Of a DNA stretch of 64,000 nucleotides, positions 24,619-60,594 are shown one piece after another. Each line of letters starts with the position of its first letter. Within the stretch, counting starts at the first letter, position 1. The stretch is taken from contig JAUCBJ010000343.1 of assembly GCA_032718475.1 (NCBI GenBank), forward strand, positions 1 through 64,000, written 5' to 3'. Both the position numbers and the translations under genes were made by a program. The notes beneath the pieces were generated by a model, which searched no databases, was not told where the DNA came from, and was given only the letters and a program-made list of their open reading frames with translations. Source of the DNA: Nemertoderma westbladi (Eukaryota > Animalia > Xenacoelomorpha).

Positions 24619-24628
24619 GTATAGAAAT
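24619..24628 (+). promoter_or_regulatory. Non-tRNA primer-binding site candidate (self-complementary to the LTR)
   Basis: GTATAGAAAT follows the LTR directly and is the reverse complement of ATTTCTATAC at 24395-24404; there is no TGG. Confidence 0.6.
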
Positions 24629-24672
24629 CTAAGGACTGCCAAACTGTGACTGCCAGACACCAAAGAGTAAAG

Positions 24673-27830: not shown

Positions 27831-27845
27831 AAGATTCCATCCGGG

Positions 27846-31356: not shown

Positions 31357-31481
31357 CCTTTTTTAATTTCAAATTCTTCTAAATTCAATTGTTATTAATC
31401 AAATTTCACTAACATTTAAATAATTTGAATTTTAATTGTATCAATTAGGCATTAATTCAATTACAATTGTAAATTAGCAAC

Positions 31482-32645
31482 TGTAAAGGCTTTTGCGGAT
31501 ATAACTAGTCATTTTCCCCGCAAAGTACTCTGTAGGTGTTTTAGCGGACATAAAAAGCCATTTTTCTGTATGTGTACTTTAGCGGACATAACAAGCCATT
31601 TTATGCCGCAATACGCCAAAATACTCTTAATACAGTGTGGCTTCAGATGACGAAATCTATCAGCTGATTTTGATGTCGATGTGGAGCTTTCTTAACTCTC
31701 TTTGTTCAGCTCACTCGACCAATCAGAGCGATTTTCATTTTATTTGTACAGAAGCCTACGGGAAATCGCGCAATGCATGACGGTCTTTGTTTACCTTTTT
31801 CCTGAGCCCAGAACATCGGCTTTGGAATTATTCTTAGTTTCAGACTTTAGCCAAACATTCGACGGCTTTGATTATAGGAACGTATAACTGTTATCGCACC
31901 AGACTCATACCAACCTGACCACAAATCAGCTCATATTATACATACCTTTCACCGCATTATTTTACTGCTATTTACTGTCGGTTATTAATTGTTAGAAGTT
32001 GATGGATATGTTGTTATATTTGGAGAATATCGATAAATAATCATAAAACCCCAATCTTCTTGATATACTGAAGGTTAGAGAGACCGGTTACCTGTAGCAA
32101 TTGCGACTTACATTATAGTGGTTTTGGAGTGAATTGAATGCTATTTCATAATCCCTACATGTGTCAGTTACTATTCTCCTTATATATGATCAAATTTAGT
32201 GAAGGTCGGCAGATCAGTGTGCAGCAGTGTGCGGTAGTGTGCATGAGTGTGACAGATAACAAAGCATTTCCTAAAGAATGCGCTTTATACGAAAATCATT
32301 AGCCATCCCGTTGTGTTTAGTGTAAGTCATAACTCTGTTTACATACTTAGAGCGCCACGTCCTAAAGGAACTGTTAATATTTCCCGAAAGTAAATAATAT
32401 TTGTCAGAGATTATATATTAACGATCAATCGAATAGTACAGTAAGTCTACACCGCAATAAGGTCAGAGCCTCCGAATCCAGTCTCCCTTAACTGTGGGTG
32501 AATGGTCGCGCATAGGCTGGCTTCGGCTAATGTAACTTTATATCTTATATGCAACAAATACTTGTTATAGGCTAAAGTCGATTTATAAACTAGAAGACAC
32601 CTAAAATTAGCGGGTTAAACTGCTAAAGGTCTAAAAGCGCGAACA
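31482..32645 (+). repeat. 5' LTR (1164 bp) of the 18.3-kb element
   Basis: Near-identical to 48609-49826; U3 carries repeats of about 41 bp (TTTTAGCGGACATAAAAAGCCATTTT), with one more copy in the 3' LTR; CCAAT at about 31719. Confidence 0.95.
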
Positions 32646-32657
32646 ATAACAGTTATA
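32646..32657 (+). promoter_or_regulatory. Non-tRNA primer-binding site candidate (self-complementary to the LTR)
   Basis: ATAACAGTTATA follows the LTR directly and is the reverse complement of TATAACTGTTAT at 31883-31894; there is no TGG. Confidence 0.65.
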
Positions 32658-34578: not shown

Positions 34579-37500
34579 ATGGCTGACACAAAGCAAAACC
34601 TGTCAGACAGTCTCCTAGATACAACCATCTGTGATCCAGATAGGAGTGCGGAACGTTTGAGACCGAAGTTCAACTCCCCTCCTACTGTAAGAAAGGTCAT
34701 CCCTCCAGTAGTAGTATCAGACCCTAGGCTAGTAAAGTACCGTAGGTCTATCATAGGCACTCGGGCTCAAGTCAAGCGGGACCAAGAGGCAGCTGTTAAA
34801 CAACAGCAACACCCGAGCCGAGAACTTATTTCTCAGCGGCCCAATAGCTCCAGTAGTTCAGATACTGTAGAGTTGACACCCGAGCGCGGAGCAAAGATGG
34901 CAGAAGCGGTTTATTCGGATCCACTTCTCATTCTTCCTGCAGCCGTACTCACTAGGGTATTGATTGCGGTGGAGGAACACCAAATGGATTGGGCGAGAAG
35001 TAAGCGATCAACCAAGGACAGTTATGCGGGATACACAAGGGAGGAACTGAAGTCTATTGTCGAGACGCAATGGAACTTCCCCAGACCCAGACTCCCGTTT
35101 AACTTATCGGAAGCTGCCTGGGAGGACTTATACAGGATGGGAGTGGTAAGGGCACAAGAGATCCAGCTGTGTGGAAGAGGTTGGCAGCAGGATATGTACA
35201 GGGATTCTTCAGCTCTTTGGAGCGATTAGAGGAACAACTGTTTCAACAACCCCAAGGACCTCAAGAGCAGGGAGAGCTGCTTTATCAAGTTCGAGAACGT
35301 ATCCTAAGAATCAGACTGATCCTATCGGCCTTTGAGGAAGCTTCGAAAAGAGGCCAAGACACGTTGTTGCAAGTTGCCGTAAAGACTTGGTTCCAGCGGG
35401 TGGGTCTCAAAGTTCAAGGAACGTCCCAGTGGAAATTTCAGTTGGCTGAGCGCTCAACCCACGGAGAATCAACAGACGCTACCTTTTCTCAAGTGGAAAG
35501 CGAAGCGACAGCAGAGAAACCTCAGAAGAAGGACGCTATTGACATATATCTGTCGGACTATCAACGATTTCTAGGTGACGAAGAGTTGAGGAGACGGCTG
35601 GCTGGACTTCGTCCTAATAGTGAACGAGCCAAGTTTGTGTTGGACGCAATAGATGCGGAAAGGTTAGAAGCGGATCGAGCTAAATTTGATGAAAGAATCC
35701 GCATCGTTAGGGAACAGGAAGAACAATTAAAGAAAAAACAAATAGAAGACAGAAAGGCAGCAACAGCAGCAGCGGCAGAAGTGAAACGAAAAGCTGCAGT
35801 AGCAGAGGCAGAAAGAAAAGCGGCAGCGGCAGCGGCAGAGGCAGAAAGAAAAGCGGCAGTGGCAGAGGCAGAAAGAAAAGCGGCAGCGGCAGAAGCCGAA
35901 AGAACTGCGGCGGAGGCAGTGTTAGAAGCAGAACGGAAGGCATCTGAAGAGACAACCCAACTAGAGTTGGAAAATCTTCAAGAGAAGCAAGACTACTTAA
36001 ATAAACAGATAACAGCTAGTCAGATGCAGCTGATAAGTCGATCTACTCCCAAGCGACAGGGATTTACATCATCTGATGAAGGCGAGACAACAGATCCTGA
36101 AGGCGGAGGAAATAGATCTCGTCTCAGCAGGCGTAGAAGAACGCCTCACCGTCAGAAATTGCCTAATTTGCCCCCAGCCGTGAGAAGGCAACTAGCTAGC
36201 ACAGACTTAGGTAGTACAGAACCCACAGACCAAATTATTAGAGTTGAAAGACTCCCTACTATAGTAGATGAGCCTGAAATAATTAGACCTGTTCTCGAAG
36301 CCACCCCTTCTGTGATAGAGACCCCTGTACTTCCAGAACCTAACTCTAAATTCCCTTTGCACAGTACTAAACTACCTGTATCCAGTAGGACAGTTCCTCA
36401 GTCAACTCTGGTCCTGGACGCCGAGCGAGACATTAACAATTTGTCACCCGTCGTCCCTCGTCTACCCGCTACTATGTTGGCGGCTCCCGCTTCGGCGGTA
36501 GAGTGGGTGGATGAGCGACGGCGGGGGATGGATATTCTCCTCGGGCAGATAGAGGAGAATCAGGCACGCTCCTCCCAGCAGGTCCGAGAGTTGGAGGGGA
36601 CTGTTCAACAGTTAAGGGGAACAGTAAGAGAGAGTAGGTTAGAATTACAGGAAGTGCAGCAGAGTATCGCGTTAGAATGAGATAAGTTAGTAAATCTACA
36701 AAAGGGTGTACCACCACCCTCTGTAACAATGTGTCAACCTGTTAGGTCTGAAGTATTTCATGCGCAAGGTGTGGAGCCTACACGCCTCTATACTGCTAGT
36801 GAAGTAGAAACTCCTATAGTAAACCCTAATAAGGGTAATTATAAACCTGTTGGCAATGATATTCCATATAGACCTGATAATAATCCGAGAAATTTATATA
36901 CCGATAACTCGATATTAAATAATACGATGGCTCAAGAAAGTTTTACGCGTCAAATGGCTAGAACTGAAGCCCGTCAAGCGGTAAAGGTGGGAGAGATCGT
37001 CAAGTTCAATGGAGATGAGATGAAATGAAATGGTTACCATTTAATGAATATTATAAAGATAACATACAGAACTCTGTGCTATCTAACGGAGAGAAACTTA
37101 GATTCCTCATCGAGTGCTTGGAAGGATCTCCCAAGTTAATGGCGTTAAAGTTTATTGGACATCCAGATGGATTAAGACAAGTTTGGGATACACTAAACAT
37201 CAGGTATGGTAATAGGAATAACATAGCTAGGTATTTGTATGCGAAATTGGTAGCGCCCCGAAAGTTTCTTAGCAGCGGGATTATAGAATTTTCCGATGAA
37301 ATCCAGGAGATTTGTAGACAATTAGATTGGCTAGGTAAGTCTCATGAATATCAGAGTTCTATGGTTATTGGAGCTGTAGCATCTACCTCGCCAAAGGGTG
37401 GAGTGGGTACTCGTTGGGACAAAAGAGTTCTATATATAATGGAACAACAACGAAGAGACCCTACCATGGCTGATCTCATGTCATTCTTGGATGGAGAGGT

Positions 37501-38811
37501 AAAATTACAGCTCCTAAAGCAGTCCAGAGAGAAGACACCGGAAAATAAGGTAAGTGAGAAACCCGTTTCTAGGAGAAAGGTAACACCAGTGTGTTATACA
37601 GATGATGGCGAAAGCCAAACCTCTCAAGAGGAGAGCAATGGGAAAGACACTGAAAGATCTTACTATGTCAACAAAACACCAAAGGATGTAAGTAAATTTA
37701 AGTCTCGAACCAGTGACAGGAGAGAACAGACAACAAAAACTCCTCCCACGTCTCCTAAGAGAGTTCATGGAAGAAAGCCCGAGGAAAAAACGAGTGTGCA
37801 CAACACTACCCAAGGTAAAGTAAGTAACATCAAACCAAAATGTGCTTTGTGCGACGGGCCCCACCGTTTAAGTGTGTGTGAGGAATTCTTAAAGAAATCC
37901 CTGAAGGATAGACGCGAAGTCATGTGGGATAAGCGGTTGTGTTATAATTGTCTCAGACAAGGACACCAACGGCGAACCTGTTACTCCGACGCAAGGTGTG
38001 TGAAGTGCGGCACGAAACATCATATTTTGTTGCACACCGAATTCGAAAGAAACAGCCCGAGTCAAGTAAGTGAGTCCGAACTACATGTCCAATTCAGTGA
38101 TGTGAACGACACTGACCTCAGTTCTGAGATGGAAGGATTCTACACGGATGAATTCTCCGACGAAAACAAATCCTGTTATCTAATAAACACCGCAGTGTAT
38201 CGAGCACTTACGTATGAGACTGAAACTGATAGTGAGCTCCCCCTAACTATTCCAGACCGACAACCATCTTGGAAAGCGCCAACTTCCAACGTAGGAATCC
38301 GAGAATTTCCCGTAGTGCAGTTGAGAGTCCACGGGTTAGAAAAGAGCTATATAGTGAACGCCCTCCTTGACTCCGGCAGCACAGGAACATTCATCGACAA
38401 AGAACTAGCCGAAGACATCTTTGCTGGACAACCCAAGTTCCGAACTAAATTGAACCTTTCAGGAATTATGCAGGTTTGGAAATCTACAGTAACTACAGAC
38501 TACTATGTAGGCGCGTTGTCCACCCCCCAGGATGAACTAGGAGAACACAGTATAAGGTCAGTAAAAATGGTGGCGATAAAGAACTTCGCTACCAGCCAAG
38601 TGAAACCTTATAACTGGGATGAAGACGATTTCACCCAGCAGCATGAGATACCTAGATTCAACACCGACTACCCAGGGGTACAAATACTCATCGGCCAAAA
38701 TGCGCATGAAGCGCTTGAGACATTATAGAAATGGCCTGCTCAACCGCAACCACTGCAAACCTATGCGGGAAGAACCAGAGTAGGTTGGTACTTTACTGGA
38801 AAGGCTACCTA
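34579..38811 (+). pseudogene. BEL/Pao gag and protease (disrupted)
   Basis: Long coiled-coil N-terminus; DUF1759-like KFNGD...WLPF...LSNGEKLRFLIECLEG; three Cys/His knuckles (CALCDGPH...C, CYNCLRQGH...C, CVKCGTKHHILLH); protease ALLDSGSTGTFI. Frameshifts at about 35200, 37025 and 38810; stops at 36678 and 38726. Confidence 0.92.
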
Positions 38812-38828
38812 AAGAGCAAGTCTACCAG

Positions 38829-41800
38829 GTGAGTGAATGGGAAGGGGAAATCAGTGAAGGAGACGACACACCTGAGGGAACACCATATTCCTCAGACAAT
38901 GACGATATTAATCAACTATTCGACAAGGAGAATACCATCGACCTCCTTACGGAAAGTGAAACTTGGCAAAACCAAGTGAACCTGTGTCACCTCATCCATC
39001 CAGCGGGACAAGTCGATTACAACAACGAACTGAATGAAGTGATAGATCGTTACAACGCGAAGACTCGCGATGAACACGCCGTACGATTCTTTACTCAAGA
39101 GGCTGTAGAGCCCAATTCCTACGATAAGGCCCTATCGGTAGAAGAGGAAAGAGCCAAGCAGATACAGGAAACGACTACACGTTTTCTTAAAGATCAAGGT
39201 AGGTATGAGATTGGTCTGCCTTTCCGACGGCAACCCAATTTTATAAACAACCGACCCTTGGCGGAGAAGAGAATTGCGCAACTCCATCGATGCCTTACGG
39301 CAAATGCTTCAGCTAAGGAGATGTACCAGACCCAGCTGAAGAAATTCATTGACAAGGGATATGCGGAGCGAGTACCGGAAGAAACACCTATAACTGAGAG
39401 AACGTACTATTTAACACATCATTACGTTCCCAAACCCGGTAAACCCAACGAAGTCCGGGTAGTATTTGACGGCTCTGCCCTCTACATGGGACAATCCCTT
39501 AACTCCGAGTTGTTGCCGGGACCCAACTTACTCCAATCCTTGTTGGGAATACTCTTAAGATTACGACAATATTCGATCGCTTTCGCCTCCGATATAGAAG
39601 GCATGTTCTTACAAGTTAAGGCGCTGGATAAGGATCGGGACAGCCTACGATTTCTGTGGTGGCCTGAAGGAGACCTCAACCAGAAACCGGTGGAGTACTG
39701 GATGACCATTCAGGCTTTTGGGATCATCTCGATATATACATGGACGACAATTTAAAGTTCCTCCCATCAGTGGAAGAAGCCATTGATGTCGCCAAAGGAA
39801 CGGTAGAGTGCTTGAAAAGAGGTGGATTTCGATTAACTAAATTCACCAGTAACTCCCGTGAATTTCTGGAATCGATCCCGGTAGAAGACCGAGGAGTTAA
39901 AGATCTAGACCTTATCAAGGACGATCTTCCAGAAACCAAGACGGTTGGTTTGAAATGGGACACAGAGAGAGATATCCTGTTTTTCCAGCTAAAACAGCGA
40001 GATAATCCAGTTCGGACTAAATGGATTTGTCTAAGTATCCTGAGCACTTATTTCGATCCATTGGGATTTATTAGCCCAGTTATATTGATTGCTTGGAGTT
40101 TAGTACAACAAATGTGGCTTGAAAACCACTCGTGGGACGATCCACTTAAGGGAGAACTATTAAAGAAGTGGATGAAATGGGAAGATTCTCTACCATCTAT
40201 CGAGAATTTTACGATTTCCTGTTCATATTTTGGTCATGTTCTCCCCACGTATTCCTACCAACTCCATGTGTTTGGAGACGCCAGCGATATGGGAATAGGT
40301 ATAGTAGCCTACCTGAGAGTTGAAACTCCGGATGGAATTAAGGTCGCCTTGGTTACCTCTAAGGCCTTGATAAACAACAAGTTGAAAGTTCCTGGAGCGG
40401 AGTTAAAAGCAGCTCTATACGCTACGGCCATCGGCCGGAATGTAACAGAACAGATCGACTATCCACTGGAGAAAACTGTCTATTGGACCGATGCTTTACT
40501 CGTGTTGGAGTATATAACCAATGAAGTCTGTCAGTTCAGCGTCTTCATTACCAACAGAGTAGCCATTATACTTAGTCGCACGAAGATAGATCAATGGAGG
40601 CATTGCCCTGGGACGATTAATCCAGCCGACATCGCCTCCAGGGGAGCAACTCCACAAGAACTGATAGATACTCCAGACTGGTTAGGTGGACCCGACTTCC
40701 TAAGCAAGGAAGAGGATGAATGGCCTCCTCATCTTACTACGGCGGAGATTAGACAAGCCAAGGGAGCGGAGAAAGTCAAACCTAAAACCCGGGCGAGTAA
40801 ATCGAAGTTATTTAAACCCGTGATAGATCTGTCTGTACTACACACTTCCGGAGACGACGTTTTGGATCCAAAATCCCCAGCCACAAACAAGTCTGTTGTG
40901 GAAATCAGAGAGAGAGATTGGAAATCTGGAACACCAGACGTCTCGCAGGGACTCTCACCCCTCCTGCAGAGAGCGATACATCACTATAGCTCCTGGAATC
41001 GGCTTTGTAAGGCTGTTGCTTATTTAAAGCGATGTTTTCATCATCACTACTCCAGGACGAAGATCGCTAGTGATGCCGCTCCACTGACATCTGCGCAGGT
41101 CCATGTTGTTAAAGATCTTCCCAAATACAAGATATCAGACAGATTTCTGAAGGAGAGGATCAGTTACCAGGAGCATGAAGAAACAAATAAGCAGATACTG
41201 AGACTCCTGCAATGCTATGAGGATTCCGATAAGTATTTCCTATTGTTGAGAAATCCACAGATGCGCTTAAGGGATCGTTTCTCTAGCACAATGATAGATG
41301 GGTTAATACGCGTTGGAGGAAGACTAACTAATGCTCCATTATCCTTTGACACTAAGTTTCCCATACTCATTAGAAATCTTGAAATACAAATCAAGATGAT
41401 TGTAGATGTTCACAGTAAGCTTTACCATGCTGGTAGAGAACGAGTTCTTAGCGAAATTCGAACTCGCTATTATTTTCATAAACCCCGTAGAGCTCTGAAC
41501 CAAGTTCTTAGGAACTGCATACCCTGTAGGAAAGCATTCAGTAGGCCTTTAACACAGCGAGAGACAGAATTACCTAGGGAACGAGTAAGCTTCTATGAAC
41601 CACCCTTCACAAATACCGGTGTGGATTTATTTGGCCCTATTGAAGTATATCGTGCTAGGACTATAGTCAAGAGATGGTGTGTCATCTTTGTCTGTATGAC
41701 TTGTAGAGCTATCCATCTCGATATGGTGAACGATCTATCTACCAACAGCTTCATACTGAGCTTACGCCGACAGATCGCTCGCTTTGGAACTAGTAACACG

Positions 41801-42622
41801 ATGAGATCTGATAAGGGAACGAACTTCATTGGTGCCAACAATGAAATCAAGGCTTACGTCAAAGATTGGAACCAAAGACAGGTGGACGATCAGCTAAGGG
41901 TAACAGCGTCTAGCTGGACCTTCAACGCCGCCGACGCCCCTTGGTGGGGAGGAAGTTGGGAGAGATTAATCAGAAGCGTGAAGACCGCATTTCACTTTAT
42001 AGTGCCGTGCCGCGTGTATCTCACCGACGAACTTTTGCGGACGTTAATGGAGGAAATCGCCGCCTATCTCAACGAGAGACCGCTTATGCCAGTCTCATCG
42101 AGTCCCGATTCCCTGGAAGCGCTAACACCCACGCACTTCCTACTGAAGAAACCTGTAGCCATGCTCTCACGATCGGAAATCACGGACGGAGACGAATACT
42201 GCCGGCAAACTTGGCAACTTATGCAGTTGTTATCCTGTCGTTTCGCTGACCATTTCGAAAAACATTATCTGCCTACGCTACAACTTCGAACTAAGTGGTT
42301 TGCGCAGCAAGAAAGCGTCAGCGCCGGAGACATGGTCCTTATTGTGGAGTCAGATCTTCCACGTAAGCGGTGGCAGACAGGTCGTATCATCGAGACTCAT
42401 ATCTCAGATGACGGTTTGGTGCGATCGGTAGAACTCGTCGTCATGCGACGTAACTTTAAGAAACCTGGAATTGTGTTCGAAACACAACAATTCAATCGCC
42501 CAGTTGGTCGTTTATGTTTACTGGAAAGAGACAGAGAACTCTCCGGAAACTATAGAAGGCAAGATACTCTTCCCACGACCACCTCCCTAATCCAACCAAC
42601 ACCCAGGGACTCCCCAACGTAA
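38829..42622 (+). pseudogene. BEL/Pao RT, RNase H and integrase (apparent deletion and frameshift inside RT)
   Basis: YYLTHHYV.KPGK..EVRVVFDGS, SLNSELLPGPNL, DIEGMFLQV, YMDD (about 39737), LHVFGDAS, WTDALLVL, WRHCPGTINPADIASRG, integrase H..GRE...C..C, TGVDLFGP, SDKGTNF, WWGGSWERLIRSVK. Confidence 0.95.
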
Positions 42623-44325
42623 CAGTGTCTGGAGTGGGTGTGTGACTATATTATTTTATATATTTTATTATTTTTATATTTATGTGTGTATTATTATGTA
42701 CTCTTATTATAATCGTTTTCTTTAATTTTATTTAGTAGAATGTTGTTCTAGCGATTATCTAGTAGATTAGTGCAATATATATTAGTCTTATTACTTAATT
42801 ACTTATATATTATATATTTAGTGCGACGGCGAGAAATAATTATTTTTCTCTTTCCTTACTGTCCGTATCATATTATAAATGCGTGACTACAGTAAGATGA
42901 AATATCCGTACTTATTAAAGTACAATAAAGCTCCTACTATACTCAAGTATTATTGGTAAGTTGAGTATTAGGAATGCAAAATTCAGATCCTCGTGTCTCG
43001 GCTAAACCAAGCTCTGGGTAGACCTTGGAAACGACTTGCCTCTTCTCACTGGCATTGCTTCTTGCAATATTGCTCTCATACCGTATATTAAATAATACAT
43101 ATAGTAGCGTGATGTCCCTTTAACAGTAGCGTAAAACGCAAAATAAATCTGTTGAACCCTTTGACCATCTGCAATTCTAGTCGATTAAGATATCGCGGCA
43201 CCCACCGATATACTTGAAAGGCAAAATTCTAGAATCAGTGGTTAACGTCCCCAGACATGTTCTGGAATAAATCGGTGCCCATCTTAAATATTAACTATTA
43301 ATATTTATAAAATCTGTCAAACAAATACAATATAGTAAATACTTACAAGTTAACTCTAGAAAATCTATAAATTAAAATCTGTCAAATTTTAGATCCTTTA
43401 AAATTCTAGTCGATTAAAATATCGTAGCACTTACCAATACTCTTAAAAGGACAAATTTCCTAGAATCAAGGATCACAGTTCCCAGACATGCTCTGGAATA
43501 AAATTGTGCTTATTCCAACATTAAATAATAAAATTTACGGGAATAAATTTAAATTCATCTCTTTTAATGAATTTGATAAATTGTCATTTTTATACAATTT
43601 ATAACATTCCCAAAATTCCATTAATTAATAGATCATGGGAGCGGAGATTCACCCTATTAAGTATATTAGTGTGCGAGAATCTCCAATATATAGTCAATAG
43701 CCGATAAAATTTCATAAAATCATGTATAAAGGGGATATTGACAATTAAAGAATTACTATTAAATAGCATCCCAGATCTGTATGCATGGGAATTACCCTAA
43801 TTCTACTGCTAGCTTTCCATAATGTCACCATAGCAACAACCACGCTAGAATTAGAAGCGAGTTAAAAGAACAATAGAAAGCTTGCCCCATTGAATAGCAT
43901 ACGGAATAAATAGCACCCTGCTAGTATCCAGGGATACATAATAATAACGTGGCATTCTGGAAGGCACTTTACTAACAGACAAATGGCCCGAATGTGTACA
44001 ATTTGTGACAGGAGTGTGGAATTTGTGTATTTATAGGTGAATGTTACTACTAAAGTGTGTTTACAGTAGCGAGTCGCAGTTGTGAAAGTAGCCCTAACTC
44101 TGCAGTAAGAACCTGAAGTAAATCTAAGCCTTTGGGACGGACAGTGGAGTGACTCGCGCTGGTTATCATTGTCGTTGTGTAGCTACTACGTTGGCGAAAA
44201 ACACAGCAACGACGGTACATCGGCGCTGAGGATCTTGCACTGTCCGGGTGCCGTGAGGGGTAGGCAGCAAAGCCCGCTAGCCTAATTATAACTAATTATA
44301 ATATTGATAAACTCATCTAGCAGCT

Positions 44326-47300
44326 ATGACTGAGTTGATAGAAGATGATCTTGGTATCAGGGAGCGATATACTCTACCGTTACAAGCGTTTGTTGATAGC
44401 TTAATACGCGGCGACGCTAGCCCAACTACTACGGAATCCGCTGGTCTTTATATCGAACCGCCAATGTCCCAGGAGCAACTCACGCGTGAATTGGACTATA
44501 GAAAATTCACTGCTCGCTATACGCATCATAATGGTACGTATATGGACTTCTTAACTACTGGCCATCCTATCGATTTACACGACACGGACGATGTAGACAC
44601 CGAAAGGGAAATGGTTTTATTTAAATATCATACCCAGCAGAGTCGGAACGATAAACCGAGAATAGAACACGAGAATTCTATTCGAAACCGACTCGAAAGA
44701 GAAGAAGTTGAAGAGCCGGATAAATGCAGCGACTTCAACGATTATCTGGAATTCTTGAGAGAAACATATCTCAATATTGCCAGTCAACAGAATCTAGAAA
44801 CTCGATATCCTCAAGGTATACATCATGACCCCATGATAGAACTCAAACGGCTCTATTTCACCATGATGTATCTTACCGCCGATCGTCCACTACCTGTTAT
44901 CCCGGATAGTTTTGAACAAATGGAAGAATATTGTAAAACTGGAGAACGATCACCCGCGTTTCCCTTGCAAGACGTGCGTCTTTGGTATTACTGTGATGAA
45001 TGCCCTAGACCCAACCAGCAAACGGAAAGACATAAACATCCGCGGAGACGTTGCGCTAAACACAGTTTTACTCGTTATACCTATGGGAGTTTCGAGCGAA
45101 ACTTGTTCGACGTATCACCTACGCTCGCTCGACTCAAACGATCCTTAAATAAACCCATGATCAGAGTTCCGGAATACTTGGTCAGACCTCCTCATTCCTT
45201 AGTGAGACCTCAAACGCTTGATCCTAATAGTATAACGGATCCCCCTGAATTGTACTCACTATTTAAAGATCTTGTGTTACCCGAACAATTAATCGGTGGC
45301 ACTCCGGTAGTGGACTCGCTAGATATTCGCCCATCCTATCTAGCCGGATTGGGACGCGGGCATCTAATATCGCCGTTCAACCCGTACAATCGTCCCGGTT
45401 TAACCCCGATACAACCCGTCACCGAAGTCGAGGAGAGCGTTGTACGAAACGCGTTAGACGCTATTCGGCAGAATATCGGAAAAGGAACTTACGATTGTTT
45501 AGAGAAACGCAAATTGCAGCAACAAGTCCAAGCGGTGAAGGAATTAGCTTTACCCCAGTTCGATCGAGAAATCCAGAACCTCGAGGAAGACATCGATCTT
45601 GGACGAACCTATTCTCTACAAGAGTTCCTAGATGAGCGTTTACAACGACAAGCGGAGGAAAATCAGCTCGAGGAGAAACACATAGAAATGGATGAGAGAG
45701 AAGAAGCAGCTTTAGCCCAGCCAGAAGCTCAAATCCTTATGACTGATCTCTATTCTAAAACCATCATTCATCCTTCGATGGTTCCCCATTTCGGAGACAA
45801 ACTCTTCGCCACGGCACAACCTCAACTGGTTGATATCAACCTAAGATCTCGAGATCTTATCGCTGACGCTCCTATGTTGCAACATCCGCCTATCGAGGCC
45901 GCTCGTGTCAACGGTATACTCGTTGAACCTCCGGACAATAGAGCGGATCTTGTCCGTCGTATGGTACACGAGGTTAACATACGCGCTAGACCTTTACCGA
46001 ACTCGTTTTATGGGATCAAAGATCACCCTTATTATGTCAATCTAACTCAATATTACATGGTAAAACCGGAAGATCCTACACATAGTCTAAGGTTTCTACC
46101 ACTAATAAATCCTCTCGATCTTGTCGAACTCGAACAACTGCAGAAACATCTGGATCAGTTAGTGAAAGTAAACTCATTCCGAAAACCCTATAATGTTTCC
46201 AGAATAGAGAAGGATATAATACCTCCGTATAATCTCGATGGATTTATCAAAACTCGATTAGTCCACTGGAATCTCGACGTGTTATTCGAGGAGGAGAGAA
46301 TACAACGATATGGAGATGTAGAAACATATACTACACAGTATTTGAAGTATAGAGATCTACCTAACGCTAGCGAATGCACCACCTTGTGGCATCCAGTGGG
46401 AATGACCCTAGAAAACGCCACTAAAGAGTGGAACGAAACACTTAACGTTATAGAGATGTATGGAGTTGTCACTTATGATAACGAAGGTAGCGTTCTGGTT
46501 GGAGAACTGGGAACTACGCGCATGATACATATACGAGGACTAGCTGGTTCTACCCACGTATTTACTCAAGCATGTTCCGACGTGATTGATTATTCTTTTG
46601 AGACCCTCACCGAGATACAAAAGAAACTCCGACATGGACAATTCGAACTCGTGCAGCGTTACGTCACTGACACCGAGCGCAAACCGGCCATGGGTATTGA
46701 TGGATCGATGTTACCCCAGCCCGTGCTCGAGATGTTGTTTAACGAAAGAATCCTTAAAATCGGCTCAGCTGTTTATGGAGATCTCCAAAATGACTTTAGG
46801 AACATGGAGAATATCCCATATCCTTTCGTAGATACTCAGCTGATTGCTCCCTGGGCAGAAGGCCGAGGTTTCTTCCGCACTATGTATGCCAATACACCCA
46901 GCGGTATCACTAAAGTACAACGAACCTCCATCGGACATCTTGCCTTTCAAGAATACGGATGGAATTTCAAGGTCGGAAATCCTATCAACTATCAACAAGT
47001 ATATGGAGATCATTATTCTCGATTATACTTCGATGGACCATTGACCGCACCTGGTGTCGTGTATAGCTTCATGAGTGTTCCACTTCGTCCCTCCTTAGCT
47101 ATATACACGATCTTTGAAAACGCCACACTTGCCGGTTGGCTAGCTGATGTGTGCAGTCGTACTATACGCGCCCATCCCTTAATACTTGGAACCAAACTCG
47201 CCAAGCTAGATGAACACAATAAATTCATCCGCTTCGAATGTTTCAGGCGCTTTCTGACTCCGTTCCGTAACGTTGATAGTCAGTTCAAGGACCGCGCTCT

Positions 47301-48531
47301 GACCAAGCTCAGACTAAGAGCTGAGAAGTTAGACAGCGCTGGATTCGCCATTTTCCAGGATGTTTGTATACAGAACTTACATTCCTCTGTTATACAAAGA
47401 CCTCGAATCCCCACGGGTTATTCTATCGTGGAAGTTCAGACAGCGGGTTCGCTTGAGGAGACAGCCACACCTATCTCAGCTATGCAACTGGAAGACGAAC
47501 CAATATGCTTAGAATCCGAGGAGATTCAGCCTACAGCGCCCCGGAGCAGCGACAACGACTACGTCTTGGAATGGTATCAAGGTCCACAGTGTCTCACCGC
47601 ATACAATTATCGGCATGCCAACTATGTTTCTCGAAAACGTTGCCGATTATGTGCATCGAGAGATCATTTCACCCCCATGGACTCAGACGTACCCTGCTCC
47701 TATTTCCATGAACAACCGGCGATGGAGATCTATTGTGCGTATTGCAGACTCAATAACTTGCACATTTTCGCAGTCTGGCCCCAATTTATGACTCAATGCC
47801 ATCATTGTCAACTTAAAGGACATGCCAGTTTTGATTGCCCTTTTAACCGCGATCTGGAAAGCGTAGATGTAATGACTACCCTACGCTACATCCGAGCTTG
47901 GGAAGCGAATGCGGATTTACATTGTGAGTCACGCCATCGCTATCCTTATCTATTCGCGTCTGTTGAACAAAAATCACGCACACCGAGTTACGAACTAATG
48001 AAGCGTGTTGGTGAGTGTATTTCAACCAAATTTGTTCGTAAATATCTCAGGAACATTAATCCTAATGATATTAATTCCTATAACTTGATTAACTTCATCC
48101 GTCAAGATCCGGAGTATGGCGATTTGTTCATCAACTCGCATCCAGAGTTACAGGAAGTGCATCGACGGCCCTACAAATATCGAGCCCGAGAACGCGAGTT
48201 GGAAAGAACCATTAAACAGAGGAAGTTTCTCACTACCCATGGTCCACCCACCGCTCTCATTCAGACGACTCATCAGGGACCAGTAAGAGCTGCTGTCCTG
48301 AAACGCGCTCTAAAGGCCATCCGACCTCGCTCCACTGAGGTTGATATCGATCAACCAGGTACCTCGACCGGCGGATACACCGACCATAATCCTAAACCTT
48401 CCGATGCAATTGTATTGCACCCTTCACCCAGGAGTTATAGCCCTCCTAGTAAAGTGGCTCGCCCCAAAGAGAAAAGGACTCTTGCTAGCCTCAAAAAACT
48501 GCGTAAACGCCGTCCGCTCAAGAAAGACTAA
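44326..48531 (+). CDS. ORF3 of the BEL/Pao element: 1401-aa protein with a DEDDy/DnaQ-like 3'-5' exonuclease domain and Cys/His zinc-knuckle cluster
   Basis: An uninterrupted 4.2-kb ORF between integrase and the PPT. ExoI-like VVTYDNEG (about 46465-46488), LPQPVLEMLFNERILKIGSAVYGD (ExoII-like), FVDTQ, SIGHLAFQEYG, ExoIII-like IYTIFE; then CRLCASRDH, CAYCRLNNLH and CHHCQLKGHASFDC. Confidence 0.8.
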   Translation: MTELIEDDLGIRERYTLPLQAFVDSLIRGDASPTTTESAGLYIEPPMSQEQLTRELDYRKFTARYTHHNGTYMDFLTTGHPIDLHDTDDVDTEREMVLFKYHTQQSRNDKPRIEHENSIRNRLEREEVEEPDKCSDFNDYLEFLRETYLNIASQQNLETRYPQGIHHDPMIELKRLYFTMMYLTADRPLPVIPDSFEQMEEYCKTGERSPAFPLQDVRLWYYCDECPRPNQQTERHKHPRRRCAKHSFTRYTYGSFERNLFDVSPTLARLKRSLNKPMIRVPEYLVRPPHSLVRPQTLDPNSITDPPELYSLFKDLVLPEQLIGGTPVVDSLDIRPSYLAGLGRGHLISPFNPYNRPGLTPIQPVTEVEESVVRNALDAIRQNIGKGTYDCLEKRKLQQQVQAVKELALPQFDREIQNLEEDIDLGRTYSLQEFLDERLQRQAEENQLEEKHIEMDEREEAALAQPEAQILMTDLYSKTIIHPSMVPHFGDKLFATAQPQLVDINLRSRDLIADAPMLQHPPIEAARVNGILVEPPDNRADLVRRMVHEVNIRARPLPNSFYGIKDHPYYVNLTQYYMVKPEDPTHSLRFLPLINPLDLVELEQLQKHLDQLVKVNSFRKPYNVSRIEKDIIPPYNLDGFIKTRLVHWNLDVLFEEERIQRYGDVETYTTQYLKYRDLPNASECTTLWHPVGMTLENATKEWNETLNVIEMYGVVTYDNEGSVLVGELGTTRMIHIRGLAGSTHVFTQACSDVIDYSFETLTEIQKKLRHGQFELVQRYVTDTERKPAMGIDGSMLPQPVLEMLFNERILKIGSAVYGDLQNDFRNMENIPYPFVDTQLIAPWAEGRGFFRTMYANTPSGITKVQRTSIGHLAFQEYGWNFKVGNPINYQQVYGDHYSRLYFDGPLTAPGVVYSFMSVPLRPSLAIYTIFENATLAGWLADVCSRTIRAHPLILGTKLAKLDEHNKFIRFECFRRFLTPFRNVDSQFKDRALTKLRLRAEKLDSAGFAIFQDVCIQNLHSSVIQRPRIPTGYSIVEVQTAGSLEETATPISAMQLEDEPICLESEEIQPTAPRSSDNDYVLEWYQGPQCLTAYNYRHANYVSRKRCRLCASRDHFTPMDSDVPCSYFHEQPAMEIYCAYCRLNNLHIFAVWPQFMTQCHHCQLKGHASFDCPFNRDLESVDVMTTLRYIRAWEANADLHCESRHRYPYLFASVEQKSRTPSYELMKRVGECISTKFVRKYLRNINPNDINSYNLINFIRQDPEYGDLFINSHPELQEVHRRPYKYRARERELERTIKQRKFLTTHGPPTALIQTTHQGPVRAAVLKRALKAIRPRSTEVDIDQPGTSTGGYTDHNPKPSDAIVLHPSPRSYSPPSKVARPKEKRTLASLKKLRKRRPLKKD

Positions 48532-48608
48532 CTGTTTAGAGTATTTTTATATTTTAGAAACTGTGATTTTTATATTTTATAGAATTAAATCCCATTTTCT
48601 GGGAGCGG

Positions 48609-49826
48609 TGTAAAGGCTTTTGCGGATATAACTAGTCATTTTCCCCGCAAAGTACTCTGTAGGTGTTTTAGCGGACATAAAAAGCCGTTTTTCTTACTGT
48701 GTAGGTGTTTTAGTGGACATAAAAAGCCATTTTTCTGTATGTGTACTTTAGCGGACATAACAAGCCATTTTATGCCGCAATACGCCAAAATACTCTTAAT
48801 ACAGTGTGGCTTAGATGACGAAATCTATCAGCTGATTTTGATGTCGATGTGGAGCTTTCTTAACTCTCTTTGTTCAGCTCACTCGACCAATCAGAGCGAT
48901 TTTCATTTTATTTTGTACAGAAGCCTACGGGAAATCGCGCAATGCATGACGGTCTTTGTTTTACCTTTTTCCTGAGCCCAGAACATCGGCTTTGGAATTA
49001 TTCTTAGTTTCAGACTTTAGCCAAATATTCGACGGCTTTGATTATAGGAACGTATAACTGTTATCGCAGTGCCAGACTCATACCAAACTGGACACACAAA
49101 TGCAGCTCATATTATACTATACGTAACTTTCACCGCATTATTTTACTGCTATTTACTGTCGGTTATTAATTGTTAGAAGTTGATGGATATGTTGTTATAT
49201 TTGGAGAATATCGATAAATAATCATAAAACCCCAATCTTCTTGATATACTGAAGGTTAGAGAGACTGGTTACCTGTAGCAATTGCGACTTACATTATAGT
49301 GGTTTTGGAGTGAATTGAATGCTATTTCATAATCCCTACATGTGTCAGTTACTATTCTCCTTATATATGATCAAATTTAGTGAAGGTCGGCAGATCAGTG
49401 TGCAGCAGTGTGCGGTAGTGTGCATGAGTGTGACAGATAACAAAGCATTTCCTAAAGAATGCGCTTTATACGAAAATCATTAGCCATCCCGTTGTGTTTA
49501 GTGTAAGTCATAACTCTGTTTACATACTTAAAGTGCCACGTCCTAAAGGAACTGTTAATATTTCCCGAAAGTAAATAATATTTGTCAGAGATTATATATT
49601 AACGATCAATCGAATAGTACAGTAAGTCTACACCGCAATAAGGTCAGAGCCTCCGAATCCAGTCTCCCTTAACTGTGGGTGAATGGTCGCGCATAGGCTG
49701 GCTTCGGCTAATGTAACTTTATATCTTATATGCAACAAATACTTGTTATAGGCTAAAGTCGATTTATTAACTAGAAGACACCTAAAATTAGCGGGTTAAA
49801 CTGCTAAAGGTCTAAAAGCGCGAACA
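48609..49826 (+). repeat. 3' LTR (1218 bp) of the 18.3-kb element
   Basis: Direct repeat of 31482-32645, followed by TSD GCAAC. Confidence 0.95.
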
Positions 49827-50527
49827 GCAACAATCAGACAATTAGGCAAATTATAAATATTTCATTAACTATATAGACAGTACAAACAAAATAAAGAAAC
49901 AATAAACAAAACAAAGTATAGTGTACAAAAGGCACTAAACAATTAAAGATTACAAAACTCGATAAACAATTAGAGAATTAAAGAGTACAAAATACAATAA
50001 ACAATTGAATTGAATTAAAGTAAACAAACAGCAATACAACACTACAGTACCAGTACCAGAAAGACATTTTATTACATTTCTATGAACCCTAGTCATCATA
50101 TCCACCTAACCAAAGTTGCATAAGAGAGGTTTCTAAGAAAATATTATGAAACTAGTGTCATAAATAGGGAAACGATTGGCCCACGCTAATTTCAGCTATC
50201 CGCTCGCTGCATGACATGTTATTTAGTACACCTTGCTGAGGCCTAAGCGTTTTGCATGACATTTCTCTCGTATCTCATCTGGACCAATCAGGAAACAGTA
50301 TTCGACTACGCGTATGCATACGCGTATGTCAAAGCGCTCAATGTAATGTATAGATTCGTGGTTACGTCAGAACATACGTGGATACGTACGGCGTACTGTA
50401 TGTTGAAAAGTAAAACCCTTACATCAGTACCGGTATACTGCAGCACTGGCTGACTCGTGCTGTCGTGGTACGCCTACCGCAGTACCGGTACAGCAGTAAC
50501 AGCATACAGTGCAGCAGCGATACAGAA

Positions 50528-52445: not shown

Positions 52446-52638
52446 AACGTGCAATCCCGACCCAATCTGTTCAACTTGCTCAATGATGAGACGCTACTTG
52501 TGGACATTGAGAATCTATCCTCTTCGGATGGCGATGGATTACCAACAGCCGATGTTTCCGTTGTTAGGAGTAAATCAAATAAAGCGAAACATTCTGGTCG
52601 TAACAGACGTAAGAAGAAGAAACAAGATAGTGTTAGGG
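52446..52638 (+). CDS. TCF25: TCF25/Rqc1-like gene, coding exon 2
   Basis: TTTCTTTATAG acceptor at 52445, in frame with exon 1; NLFNLLNDE (compare TCF25 NxFxLLN) and an RRKKKK basic tract; probable donor G|GTGAGT at 52639. Confidence 0.6.
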
Positions 52639-55600
52639 GTGAGTCCGTCATTGTTAGGGCCCCTATGGGTCAGTGTTATTGTGTTAAGGGGTTAGTCCGT
52701 GAGTGTTAGGGGTCAGTCCGGCAGTGTTATTGTGTTAGGGGTGAGTCCGTGAGTGTTACAGGTGAGTCCGTGAGTGTTAAAGGTGAGTCCGTGAGTGTTA
52801 CAGGTGAGTCCTGGAGTGTTACGGGTGAGTCCGTGAGTGTTACAGGTGAGTCCATGAATGTTATTGTGTTGCAACTGAGTCCGTGAGTGTTACAGGTGAG
52901 TCCATGAGTGTTACAGGTGGTCCGTGGGTGTTACAGGTGAGTCCGTGAGTGTTACAGGTGAGTCCGTGAGTGTTACGGGTGAGTCCGTGAGTGTTATTGT
53001 GTTGCAAGTGAGTCCGTGAGTGTTACAGGTGAGTCCATGAGTGTTACAGGTGGTCCGTGGGTGTTACAGGTGAGTCCGTGAGTGTTACAGGTGAGTCCGT
53101 GAGTGTTACGGGTGAGTCCGTGAGTGTTACAGGTGAGTCCATGAGTGTTATTGTGTTGCAAGTGAGTCCCTGAGTGTTACAGGTGAGTCCGTGAGTGTTA
53201 CAGGTGGTCCGTGGGTGTTACAGGTGAGTCCGTGGGTGTTACAGGTGATCCGTGGGTGTTACAGGTGGTCCGTGGGTGTTACAGGTGGTCCGTGGGTGTT
53301 ACAGGTGAGTCCGTGAGTGTTACAGGTGAGTCCGTGAGTGTTACAGGTGAGTCCGTGCGTGTTACAGGTGAGTCCGTGAGTGTTACAGGTGAGTCCGTGA
53401 GTGTTAAAGGTGAGTCCGTGAGTGTTACATGTGAGTCCGTGAGTGTTACAGGTGGTCCGTGGGTGTTACAGGTGAGTCTGTGAGTGTTACAGGTGAGACC
53501 ATGAGTGTTACATGTGAGTCCGTGAGTGTTACAGGTGGTGCGTGGGTGTTACAGGTGAGTCCGTGAGTGTTACAGGTAAGTCTGTGAGTGTTACAGGTGG
53601 TCCGTGGGTGTTACAGGTGAGTCCGTGGGTGTTACAGGTGAGTCTGTGAGTGACACAGGTGGTCCGTGGGTGTTACAGGTGAGTCTGTGAGTGTTACAGG
53701 TGGTCCGTGGGTGTTACAGGTGAGTCCGTGAGTGTTACAGGTGGTCCGTGAGTGTTACAGGTGAGTCCGTGAGTGTTACATGGAGTCAGAGAGTATTACA
53801 GGTGGTCCGTGGGTGTTACAGGTGAGTCCGTGAATGTTACAGGTGAGTCCGTGAGTGTTACATGGAGTCCATGAGTATTACAGGTGGTCCGTGGGTGTTA
53901 CAGGTGAGTCCGTGAATGTTACAGGTGAGTCCGTGAGTGTTACAGGTGAGTCTGTGAGTGTTACATGGAGTCCATGAGTATTACAGGTGGTCCGTGGGTG
54001 TTACAGGTGAGTCCGTGAGTGTTACAGGTGAGTCCGTGCGTGTTACAGGTGAGTCTGTGAGTGTTACAGGTGGGTCCGTGAGTGTTACAGGTGGTCCGTG
54101 GGTGTTACAGGTGAGTCCGTGAATGTTACAGGTGAGTCCGTGAGTGTTACATGGAGTCCATGAGTATTACAGGTGGTCCGTGGGTGTTACAGGTGAGTCT
54201 GTGAGTGTTACAGGTGAGTACGTGGGTGTTACAGGTGAGTCCGTGAATGTTACAGGTGAGTCCGTGAGTGTTACAGGTGAGTCTGTGAGTGTTACAGATG
54301 AGTCCGTGAGTGTTACAGGTGAGTCCGTGAGTGTTACGGGTGAGTCCGTGAGTGTTATTGTGTTGCAAGTGAGTCCGTGAGTGTTACAGGTGAGTCCATG
54401 AGTGTTACAGGTGGTCCGTGGGTGTTACAGGTGAGTCCGTGAGTGTTACAGGTGAGTCCGTGAGTGTTACGGGTGAGTCCGTGAGTGTTACAGGTGAGTC
54501 CATGAGTGTTATTGTGTTGCAAGTGAGTCCCTGAGTGTTACAGGTGAGTCCGTGAGTGTTACGGGTGGTCCGTGGGTGTTACAGGTGAGTCCGTGGGTGT
54601 TACAGGTGATCCGTGGGTGTTACAGGTGGTCCGTGGGTGTTACAGGTGGTCCGTGGGTGTTACAGGTGAGTCCGTGAGTGTTACAGGTGAGTCCGTGAGT
54701 GTTACAGGTGAGTCCGTGCGTGTTACAGATGAGTCCGTGAGTGTTACAGGTGAGTCCGTGAGTGTTAAAGGTGAGTCCGTGAGTGTTACATGTGAGTCCG
54801 TGAGTGTTACAGGTGGTCCGTGGGTGTTACAGGTGAGTCTGTGAGTGTTACAGGTGAGACCATGAGTGTTACATGTGAGTCCGTGAGTGTTACAGGTGGT
54901 GCGTGGGTGTTACAGGTGAGTCCGTGAGTGTTACAGGTAAGTCTGTGAGTGTTACAGGTGGTCCGTGGGTGTTACAGGTGAGTCCGTGGATGTTACAGGT
55001 GAGTCTGTGAGTGACACAGGTGGTCCGTGGGTGTTACAGGTGAGTCTGTGAGTGTTACAGGTGGTCCGTGGGTGTTACAGGTGAGTCCGTGAGTGTTACA
55101 GGTGGTCCGTGAGTGTTACAGGTGAGTCCGTGAGTGTTACATGGAGTCAGAGAGTATTACAGGTGGTCCGTGGGTGTTACAGGTGAGTCCGTGAATGTTA
55201 CAGGTGAGTCCGTGAGTGTTACATGGAGTCCATGAGTATTACAGGTGGTCCGTGGGTGTTACAGGTGAGTCCGTGAATGTTACAGGTGAGTCCGTGAGTG
55301 TTACAGGTGAGTCTGTGAGTGTTACATGGAGTCCATGAGTATTACAGGTGGTCCGTGGGTGTTACAGGTGAGTCCGTGAGTGTTACAGGTGAGTCCGTGC
55401 GTGTTACAGGTGAGTCTGTGAGTGTTACAGGTGGGTCCGTGAGTGTTACAGGTGGTCCGTGGGTGTTACAGGTGAGTCCGTGAATGTTACAGGTGAGTCC
55501 GTGAGTGTTACATGGAGTCCATGAGTATTACAGGTGGTCCGTGGGTGTTACAGGTGAGTCCGTGAATGTTACAGGTGAGTCCGTGAGTGTTACAGGTGAG

Positions 55601-56052
55601 TCTGTGAGTGTTACATGGAGTCCATGAGTATTACAGGTGGTCCGTGGGTGTTACAGGTGAGTCCGTGAGTGTTACAGGTGAGTCCGTGCGTGTTACAGGT
55701 GAGTCTGTGAGTGTTACAGGTGAGTCCGTGAGTGTTACAGGTGGTCCGTGGGTGTTACAGGTGAGTCCGTGAGTGTTACAGGTGGTCCGTGAGTGTTACA
55801 GGTGAGTCTGTGAGTGTTACATGGAGTCCATCATGAGTATTACAGGTGGTCCGTGGGTGTTACAGGTGAGTCTGTGAGTGTTACAGGTGAGTACGTGGGT
55901 GTTACAGGTGAGTCCGTGAATGTTACAGGTGAGTCCGTGAGTGTTACAGGTGAGTCTGTGAGTGTTACAGATGAGTCCGTGAGTGTTACAGGTGGTCCGT
56001 GGGTGTTACAGGTGAGTTCGTGAGTGTTACAGGTGGTCCGTGAGTGTTACAG
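52630..56052. repeat. 21-bp satellite (GTGAGTCCGTGAGTGTTACAG)n with 20-bp variants and a 1361-bp higher-order duplication
   Basis: About 160 monomers; the same variant pattern recurs at 53211 and 54572. Confidence 0.95.
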
Positions 56053-56544
56053 CTACATCCGCCCAGTCCGGAGTGTTCGGGGAGTGAGGCCATGAGTGCT
56101 ATAATTTATTTCAAATGGTGATAAAACCATCCTTGCACAATTCTGTGAGATTTTGACATCATGTATGGGGTCCTCCAGGCCAATCAAATTAATCCATTTA
56201 ATGGTTGCGACCGAAGAGTGACACGAAAGCACGAATTTAGAGAAATCCTACTCCATGGCGCATTAGTGGGAGTAGCAGTAGAGATATTCAAAACAACAAT
56301 ACAGTGACTATAGTCATCGTGGTATTTGACAAAAAGTGTAGTACAAAAAGTAGTAGTGTAGCTCCAACATAAACTTCTTGCGTCGCGATATAAGTCTATT
56401 GATATTGCTTCGCAATGGTTTTTACCATTCATTTAATACTCACAGCTCACATTCCACTTCTGATTGAGATATTGCATTGTCAGAATAAAGGTATTCATTA
56501 TTCGAGCAAGGTATGCCAGTCTAGCTATGGCTTGGCAACAACTT

Positions 56545-59500: not shown

Positions 59501-59581
59501 GGTCTATTTAGAGATTGCTGAATAGCAACACCAACACATGCAGCAGGGGCGTAGACGCTGTGCAGACATAGGTTCCGACAG

Positions 59582-59955
59582 AGGTGCCGACATAGGTGCC
59601 GACACAGGTGCCGACACAGGTGCCGACACAGGTGCCGACACAGGTGCCGACACAGGTGCCGACACAGGTGCCGACACAGGTGCCGACACAGGTGCCGACA
59701 CAGGTGCCGACACAGGTGCCGACACAGGTGCCGACACAGGTGCCGACACAGGTGCCGACACAGGTGCCGACACAGGTGCCGACACAGGTGCCGACACAGG
59801 TGCCGACACAGGTGCCGACACAGGTGCCGACACAGGTGCCGACACAGGTGCCGACACAGGTGCCGACACAGGTGCCGACACAGGTGCCGACACAGGTGCC
59901 GACACAGGTGCCGACACAGGTGCCGACACAGGTGCCGACATAGGTGCCGACATAG
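59582..59955. repeat. 12-bp minisatellite (GGTGCCGACACA)n, about 31 copies
   Basis: A nearly perfect tandem array. Confidence 0.97.
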
Positions 59956-60594
59956 TGACCGACTTAGGCACTCAGGTTTCTCTCAATATGTTTATCTCAC
60001 TAAATGGCTTACTTGTTGTGACGTTATTCACTATTAACTCCAATAAGTATGTTTAAGAATATATATATAAAGATAAAGAACATGCTAAATGATTGCGATA
60101 AGCGATAAACAGACAAAATACAATGCGACCACCTCGATTATAGATTATATTAATAAGTAGAGCACTACTGATATTCTTTATATACAACTGATATTGATAT
60201 TCCTTATATACTACTAATAATTTAGACCGCAGGATGTACCGCAGGATGGCGCTAAACCATCTGGAATTCTCAAGAATACTGACTATGGACTCTGTGAAAA
60301 GTTTAATTTTTTAAATAGAATTTGGGTGGGGCCATTGAGTATCACAAGTATGACTGTCTGTCTTTTTTCCAAATATTTTCGAACACTAATAATTCGGTCA
60401 ATCCTCGATAAAATTAATCCAAACGTGAAACACAGTCTGTCAAAAATGTAGAAATTTTACAAAAGAATATCAGGATTCTCTCTATGGATTATAATCTAAA
60501 ATTCATACGATAATAATTTTTATTAATATTATAAGTAAATTGGGTGTCTCGTGGCCCCACATTTATCTAGTTTAAGATTACTCGGAATTTTTAT

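Follow-up and report, generated by a model that had tools for sequence, protein, structure and literature searches.

What occupies the place between the integrase and the 3' long terminal repeat (LTR) of a BEL/Pao retrotransposon, where third genes have been described as env-like? The question is raised by a locus of Nemertoderma westbladi (Xenacoelomorpha), within 64,000 nucleotides of contig JAUCBJ010000343.1 (assembly GCA_032718475.1, positions 1 to 64,000 of the forward strand), referred to here as the window. An element of 18,345 bp in this window carries a third open reading frame (ORF3) of 1401 amino acids (aa). From profile comparisons and models, we predict that residues ~690-945 very probably adopt a DEDDy-type 3'-5' exonuclease fold of the RNase D/WRN kind. 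Coordinates of the features discussed are collected in Table 1.

An intact third reading frame in a large BEL/Pao element

ORF3 is open over its whole length, and 200 shuffles of its bases gave open frames of at most 263 aa. An initial annotation, made from the letters of the window, had described a 4.2-kb uninterrupted frame between integrase and 3' LTR. This is borne out by the limits found here, with the last piece of pol ending at 42622 and the LTR starting at 48609. The lack of a transmembrane (TM) segment also held up, because the most hydrophobic window of 19 residues reaches only 1.17. An env identity was rejected for ORF3, which has neither a TM anchor nor a Pfam match to a fusion protein.

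The coding domains of the element place it in BEL/Pao despite an atypical primer site. DUF1759 (E 1.5e-9), an aspartic protease, Peptidase_A17 (2.1e-32), Integrase_H2C2 (1.4e-7) and DUF5641 (9.5e-20) follow each other in BEL/Pao order, and the motif YMDD is present in pol. The gag-pol region is broken five times, by four frame changes and one in-frame stop. An LTR pair with TG...CA ends and a short target site duplication (TSD; 5 bp, GCAAC) is found, as in BEL/Pao elements. The insertion is young, since the LTRs are nearly identical (6 substitutions in 1163 aligned bases, 0.5%). The 10 indel events between the LTRs, seven of them of a single base, outnumber the substitutions, and nearly all are bases missing from the 5' LTR; some of them, like some of the frame changes in gag-pol, may have their source in assembly error.

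The length of the element lies outside the 4.2-10 kb given for Belpaoviridae in the profile issued by ICTV, the international virus taxonomy committee (PMC8742986), a range that is descriptive only. The main survey of BEL/Pao elements set an upper bound of 15 kb for full-length elements (PMC3118150), and families like the present one may be under-counted because they exceed it. The AT-rich leader of 1.9 kb ahead of gag (32646-34578) contains a tandem duplication of ~125 bp near 34190-34442 and a long C run. Rfam gave no matches across 23000-51000.

ORF3 belongs to this element, and nothing evident marks it as a nested insertion. When the interval between the pol stop and the 3' LTR was compared with itself, four short repeats and no terminal repeats came up, and no convincing TSD surrounds ORF3. 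The possibility of an insertion with ends of its own, which the initial annotation had raised, was rejected on these grounds. The region of spacer plus ORF3 is flanked by a 13-bp AT-rich direct match (E 0.44), taken as chance.

A predicted DEDDy-type exonuclease domain

Exonuclease motifs had been quoted for ORF3 from the outset, and all are present: YDNEG at residue 717, LPQPV at 796, KIGSAVYGD at 811, FVDTQ at 834, SIGHLA at 868 and Y927-x3-E931, with KKLRKRR at 1390. Profile and structure-feature searches support the DnaQ-like fold that these motifs had suggested, as a prediction. In the ESM Atlas, PF01612 occurred in 24 of the 30 nearest clusters, with a best score of 0.93 and, in the rows shown, in 28-51% of the cluster members; a score of 0.9 is reached by 4-10 of 100 shuffled proteins. 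The NCBIfam model for RNase D matched aa 798-842 (E 0.0033). For hhalign, the comparison set was 50 bacterial domains of the RNase D, PolA and WRN-like kinds. ORF3 paired with P0002, its single database match (see below), gave 93.9% (E 1.6e-7) over 47 columns of the ExoII block, and ORF3 alone scored 38.8, compared with no more than 22.2 in 50 shuffles. Among 13 sliding windows, the two with the whole ExoII block scored 39, one with part of it 25, and the other ten 14.7 or less.

A single-sequence AlphaFold model had a predicted local distance difference test (pLDDT) of 30.5. For a second model, the guide was a set of bacterial DEDDy rows cut down to the ExoII-ExoIII half; pLDDT in that half was mostly 70-90, a circular outcome, and below 50 in the unguided N-half. 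Foldseek gave no match to the guided model at E<=0.001. With VIA-align, the WRN exonuclease was best (Z 7.0, root-mean-square deviation 3.2, 131 aligned), a middling and partly circular Z that was tied with other DEDD enzymes, and DEDD-domain proteins were found throughout the 50 rows shown. The top BFVD row was a Pithovirus exonuclease (E 0.074).

Within the domain, an alignment of 45 rows shows no variation at K811, D819 and Y927, and D819 aligns with the ExoII Asp of RNase D. Both ExoII and the ExoIII Y-x3-E align well, in agreement with their original assignment. At ExoIII, Y927 is kept and Glu stands at 931 in place of the Asp of Y-x3-D, and for this reason the domain is filed as a DEDDy-like variant. 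A D-E-D-E active site with ExoI at D718/E720 is predicted, and we consider it probable, at lower confidence than the fold itself. In the large-insertion mode of MAFFT, D718/E720 falls on ExoI, the IHIRGLAG hairpin that follows is placed on strands 2-3, and ExoII is preceded by ~40 extra residues. Two low-confidence models, in which strands lie around 710-737 and a helix starts at 758, lean to YDNEG as ExoI. D782-T-E784, a third candidate for ExoI, would leave no room for strands 2-3 and was rejected for that reason.

Several results weigh against reading ORF3 as an active exonuclease. Pfam gave no PF01612 match to ORF3, and P0002 reached 11.9 bits against a cut-off of 23.6. Sequence searches of the PDB returned 0 matches and 1 unrelated match, and the Atlas match shares 166 features, just below the 170 typical of true family members. 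Residue 931 is Glu in both ORF3 and P0002, where 90% or more of the rows in the alignment have Asp. In the local and global modes of MAFFT, D757-Y-S takes the place of ExoI, without the Glu, and neither candidate segment exceeds its shuffles in score (mean z 0.6 vs 0.9; D718/E720 favoured by 23 of 51 rows). The case for YDNEG as ExoI therefore keeps its pattern and the agreement of one of three alignment modes, but not a score above shuffles, and the pLDDT there is below 50.

These observations bear on another explanation, in which the domain has no catalytic activity and ORF3 serves as an adaptor that binds RNA, for export or transport of the long unspliced genomic RNA. Dead DEDDy folds are used in Egalitarian and EXD1. 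An ExoI without statistical placement and the Glu of ExoIII would be expected of such a protein, and the knuckles, basic tail and 690-aa extension would fit a scaffold. Export of Cer1 RNA by CERV, a separately encoded factor, provides a precedent (PMC10309623). On the other hand, P0002, at ~30% identity, has retained D-x-E, D and Y-x3-E alike, which suits metal binding, and the large-insertion alignment puts YDNE and the next hairpin on ExoI and strands 2-3. Overall, we regard a dead adaptor as unlikely.

Zinc knuckles and flanking regions of ORF3

The three Cys/His knuckles originally listed after the exonuclease domain are present as a cluster, but only one of them (1158-1171) is a canonical CX2CX4HX4C knuckle. 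The other two are irregular: at 1106-1124 the spacing is long, and at 1137-1151 the fourth ligand is missing from this copy. Pfam zf-CCHC_3 remained below its cut-off (E 2.7e-4). Aligned locally, the knuckles of ORF3 and P0002 score 57, above all of 1000 shuffles (max 56). Taken together, the nuclease fold, knuckles and basic tail suggest an RNA-directed and probably nuclear protein.

The N-terminus of ORF3 is acidic. It had no Pfam match for aa 1-458 or in a scan of the whole protein, and no usable Atlas match for aa 90-640. A Cys/His cluster within it, absent from the initial annotation (44992-45063; C223, C226, H236/H238, C243, H246), is a possible additional zinc site.

Relatives and copies of ORF3

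Among 1.84 billion representatives, a single protein matched ORF3: P0002, of 648 aa, from an ENA contig of 9449 bp (E 7.1e-5). The two share the DxE/KxGS..D/Y-x3-E block (31% over 150 aa), in which DVE, KVGS..D, VLDTQ and YYIYCE of P0002 stand in the same order, including the Glu of ExoIII, and three knuckles follow. P0002 differs in lacking the long N-terminus and in a shorter insert before ExoII. Further searches extended this family no further. ORF3 aa 560-1260 had no match among 3210 candidates of 770-2452 aa, P0002 as query found only itself among 7989 scored, and the two-row alignment of both, run against 2910 candidates of 125-473 aa, had no match at E<=10. Scans of metagenome and viral contigs confirmed 0 of 54, 0 of 182 and 0 of 346 pattern matches, and PHROGs gave weak rows only.

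ORF3-like DNA is multicopy in this organism, as three samples of it show. Four DNA runs from this organism, covering three samples and three studies, contain ORF3-like DNA in 23,498, 17,878, 8,296 and 346 contigs; one of them may be the source of the window, and these counts are not copy numbers. No RNA run was among the sequencing runs listed for ORF3. The pieces cover all 30 bins of the frame, with identities from 99% to below 90%, and no listed piece spans it. Over 8131 bases in 32 listed pieces (of >50,000; some represent one stretch in more than one run), mismatches number 1327 and gap letters 8, a divergence of ~16%. So few indels suggest a constraint on the frame, although the aligner may split pieces at indels, and selection on ORF3 is suggested.

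A further explanation that the copies help to assess is that ORF3 is a passenger, captured or nested, open by chance and with no part to play for the element. Of 1103 variant sites, the 40 displayed are mostly positions where this copy differs from the majority; they comprise 17 synonymous and 23 non-synonymous changes, a pattern that does not differ from the neutral one (31% expected, p 0.12). At the density of breaks in this gag-pol, a 4.2-kb frame would stay open with a chance of 4-7%, which makes its openness weak evidence. Seven indels and several large deletions are also listed among the pieces. Some sister copies have lost the exonuclease domain through deletions of 2.5-2.8 kb (joints 44694-47490 and 45677-48182, skipping 2504-2795 nt), and the linkage of ORF3 to BEL pol is known from this copy only, as the runs were compared with ORF3 alone. 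The 13-bp match around spacer and ORF3 would likewise fit a captured segment. Set against these points are the lack of terminal repeats or a convincing TSD, an intronless frame of 4.2 kb with few indels at the divergence given above, and the lack of a close cellular relative among the representatives searched. A passenger is, in our view, distinctly unlikely.

A primer site complementary to the LTR

The ICTV profile describes an 18-nt primer-binding site for tRNA(Arg/Gly) in Belpaoviridae (PMC8742986). The 18.3-kb element lacks such a site, having no TGG in the 100 nt after its 5' LTR, and has an LTR-complementary site instead. The match of 12 nt was reached by 0 of 3000 shuffled LTRs and at 0 of 1496 other offsets. 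In the predicted fold of an RNA begun at 31883, 11 of the 12 pairs have probabilities of 0.82-1.0.

A second BEL-type element, of 6.1 kb, lies upstream in the window. It also has no TGG site, and its positions 24619-24628 are complementary over 10 nt to its own LTR at 24395-24404 (5 of 3000 shuffles, 0 of 1496 other offsets). Gag (DUF1759) and protease are present in pieces, followed by a short hydrophobic stretch; no RT (reverse transcriptase) or integrase was recognised in it, nor any ORF3, and tblastx found no match to the gag-pol of the large element. An LTR-complementary primer site is the signature of Tf1-type self-priming, and both BEL elements appear to carry it. In Tf1 and the sushi group of Ty3/gypsy, too, a stretch of 10-12 nt in the LTR of the same element pairs with the primer site abutting the 5' LTR. 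These belong to a different superfamily, and the likeness of the present element to them is one of complementarity. None of the primer-site terms looked for occurs in PMC554778, PMC6238403 or PMC3118150.

The predicted exonuclease could act on the nucleic acid ends of the element itself, and most specifically could remove the unpaired 3' tail of an LTR-derived self-primer before extension by RT. The missing TGG and the 12 complementary nt would fit this. However, the Tf1 primer is made with RNase H alone, and the 6.1-kb neighbour has the signature but no ORF3, though this element is non-autonomous and could be served in trans. The work on rotifer elements puts 3'-end processing of element RNA first among possible roles (PMC5408684). 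We consider such processing of own ends rather unlikely here, if less so than the passenger.

A possible role in countering host silencing

Our tentative preference is for a role of ORF3 in countering host RNA silencing or surveillance of the element, which we hold to be possible, by analogy, and short of an even chance. The ORF3 protein would be made from its own message, for which the 1.7-kb spacer presumably holds a splice acceptor or promoter; the rotifer ORF3s are reportedly made from spliced messages (PMC5408684). The zinc knuckles would hold single-stranded RNA and the basic tail would take the protein to the nucleus. The protein would then trim or sequester small guide RNAs or, alternatively, divert Mut-7/Nibbler/Rrp6-like host nucleases as a decoy, and the RNA of the element would survive. 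Just 5' of the ORF3 ATG (44280-44325), two CTAAT words resembling branch points lie 30-45 nt before AG dinucleotides, forming a candidate splice acceptor with a weak pyrimidine tract.

DEDD nucleases have been described in rotifer LTR and Penelope-like (Athena) elements (PMC5408684) and in Dada DNA transposons (PMC3706591), and the ExoN of arenaviruses serves immune evasion (PMC7968707). Because carriers that are mechanistically unrelated have acquired these nucleases, a host-facing role appears the most likely. The target proposed for it is drawn by analogy, which counts against it, as does the rotifer study, in which DEDDy ORF3 and copy number are not clearly linked and a silencing role is presented as only possible (PMC5408684).

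Proofreading of cDNA, allowing an oversized genome in the manner of nidovirus ExoN, had also been put forward for ORF3. The length of 18.3 kb against a family range of 4.2-10 kb (PMC8742986), the WRN exonuclease as the best VIA-align match and the association of ExoN with genome growth in nidoviruses (PMC7968707) would agree with it. It is nevertheless the weakest of the three roles originally proposed, because ORF3 is a separate cistron 1.7 kb behind pol and is not fused to RT. In addition, ORF3 and its spacer themselves make up much of the extra length, and the model behind the Z of 7.0, a value reached by other DEDD enzymes too, was guided by an alignment. We judge proofreading very improbable.

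In its most far-reaching form, which is speculative and unlikely, our reading is of a giant, tRNA-independent BEL/Pao lineage with its own D-E-D-E exonuclease akin to giant-virus enzymes. The enzyme would mature the self-primer or destroy host guide RNAs, and as a counterpart of nidovirus and arenavirus ExoN it would let an 18-kb genome spread to high copy number.

Other features of the window

Beyond the two BEL-type elements, the window holds a C2H2 zinc-finger ORF of 1013 aa (10495-13536, minus strand), an ORF with a fibrinogen C-terminal domain (5405-6061, plus strand), a decayed integrase (rve) fragment (1100-2414, minus strand) and a tRNA-Asn gene (6234-6305, minus strand), all of which are consistent with invertebrate DNA. 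Satellite arrays with units of 21, 63 and 12 bp occupy 52600-60000, and a 62-bp array lies at 15650-17740.

Table 1. Positions in the window of the two BEL-type elements and of the parts of ORF3
Feature	Position	Strand	Remarks
Second BEL-type element, 6.1 kb	24032-30177		LTRs 587/588 bp, 7 substitutions; TSD ATTAT
5' TSD GCAAC	31477..31481	+	Same 5-mer directly outside both LTRs
5' LTR, 1164 bp, TG...CA	31482..32645	+	Versus 3' LTR: 6 substitutions, 10 indel events
12-nt LTR segment complementary to primer-binding position, candidate self-primer	31883..31894	+	Second copy 49053-49064
Primer-binding position without TGG	32646..32657	+	Exact reverse complement of 31883-31894
BEL/Pao gag-pol (Gag, knuckles, protease, RT, RNase H, integrase)	34579..42622	+	Six open pieces
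AT-rich spacer, 1.7 kb, pol to ORF3	42623..44325	+	Several AATAAA; degenerate ~135-bp repeat pair
ORF3, 1401 aa	44326..48531	+	Stop-free translation
N-terminal ~690 aa, no known family	44326..46392	+	Cys/His cluster at aa 223-246
Predicted DEDDy 3'-5' exonuclease domain	46393..47160	+	aa ~690-945
Candidate ExoI D718/E720	46477, 46483	+	
Candidate ExoII D819	46780	+	
Candidate ExoIII Y927/E931	47104, 47116	+	
Zinc-knuckle cluster	47641..47838	+	One canonical CCHC, two variant
Basic tail KKLRKRRPLKK	48493..48525	+	Putative nuclear localization signal, from sequence
Purine-rich tract ahead of 3' LTR	48601..48608	+	
3' LTR, 1218 bp, TG...CA	48609..49826	+	
3' TSD GCAAC	49827..49831	+	

Relation to known systems and significance

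The closest parallels are the DEDDy ORF3s of the rotifer elements Juno/Vesta and Athena/Terminon (Rodriguez et al. 2017, PMC5408684). Like the frame described here, they are separate DEDDy ORFs after the integrase with no TM or env features, and in both cases the function is predicted. The present carrier differs in being BEL/Pao, and its ORF3 of 1401 aa has knuckles and a long N-terminus; the motif reported for the rotifer proteins is DEED, in contrast to D-E-D-E here. No rotifer sequence appeared in any ORF3 homology search, which therefore lends no support to a common origin. The initial annotation had cited Gypsy-type elements of both bdelloid rotifers and nematodes as precedents. The rotifer elements are published, whereas the nematode part was not found: the word 'nematode' occurs 0 times in the excerpts of PMC5408684. 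The full-text literature searched, a scope outside which Repbase, GyDB, subscription journals and supplements lie, contained no paper on an exonuclease ORF in nematode or BEL/Pao elements, which agrees with the initial annotation, to which no case in BEL/Pao with this large architecture was known.

Among cellular proteins, the RNase D/WRN-exo/EXD/Mut-7 (Nibbler) group of PF01612 shares with ORF3 the ExoII block, the DTQ strand and the PL...Y-x3-acid layout of ExoIII, and the KVGV of bacterial WRN-like rows is resembled by KIGS. ORF3 departs from this group by falling below the family cut-off, by its ExoIII Glu, by the ~40 extra residues before ExoII and by long inserts after it. Giant-virus (Nucleocytoviricota) 3'-5' exonucleases account for the four Atlas rows shown as well as the Pithovirus row in BFVD, but alignments add no support to this likeness, and transfer is not to be read from the taxa of the Atlas rows. 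Those Belpaoviridae whose third gene is env-like (roo, and those with Chuviridae-like glycoproteins; PMC13524379, PMC8742986) also have it between pol and 3' LTR; the present element differs in having no TM or fusion features and no tRNA primer site, and in its length of 18.3 kb.

DEDDy-like accessory ORFs were thus known from rotifer elements, and what is new is the giant, apparently self-priming BEL/Pao carrier, the architecture of its ORF3 and the D-E-D-E motif. In its self-priming signature the element differs from the family as ICTV describes it, and an enzyme in the slot of the env-like genes extends the rotifer case to another LTR superfamily. These findings suggest that retroelements repeatedly recruit 3'-5' nucleases, whose activity had not been reported as of PMC5408684. 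The open ORF3 in a young copy makes nuclease activity testable, including that of the natural D-E-D-E site. To our knowledge, element-encoded suppressors of small-RNA silencing in animals are few, and a counter-silencing role, if true, would matter for the conflict between transposons and their hosts.

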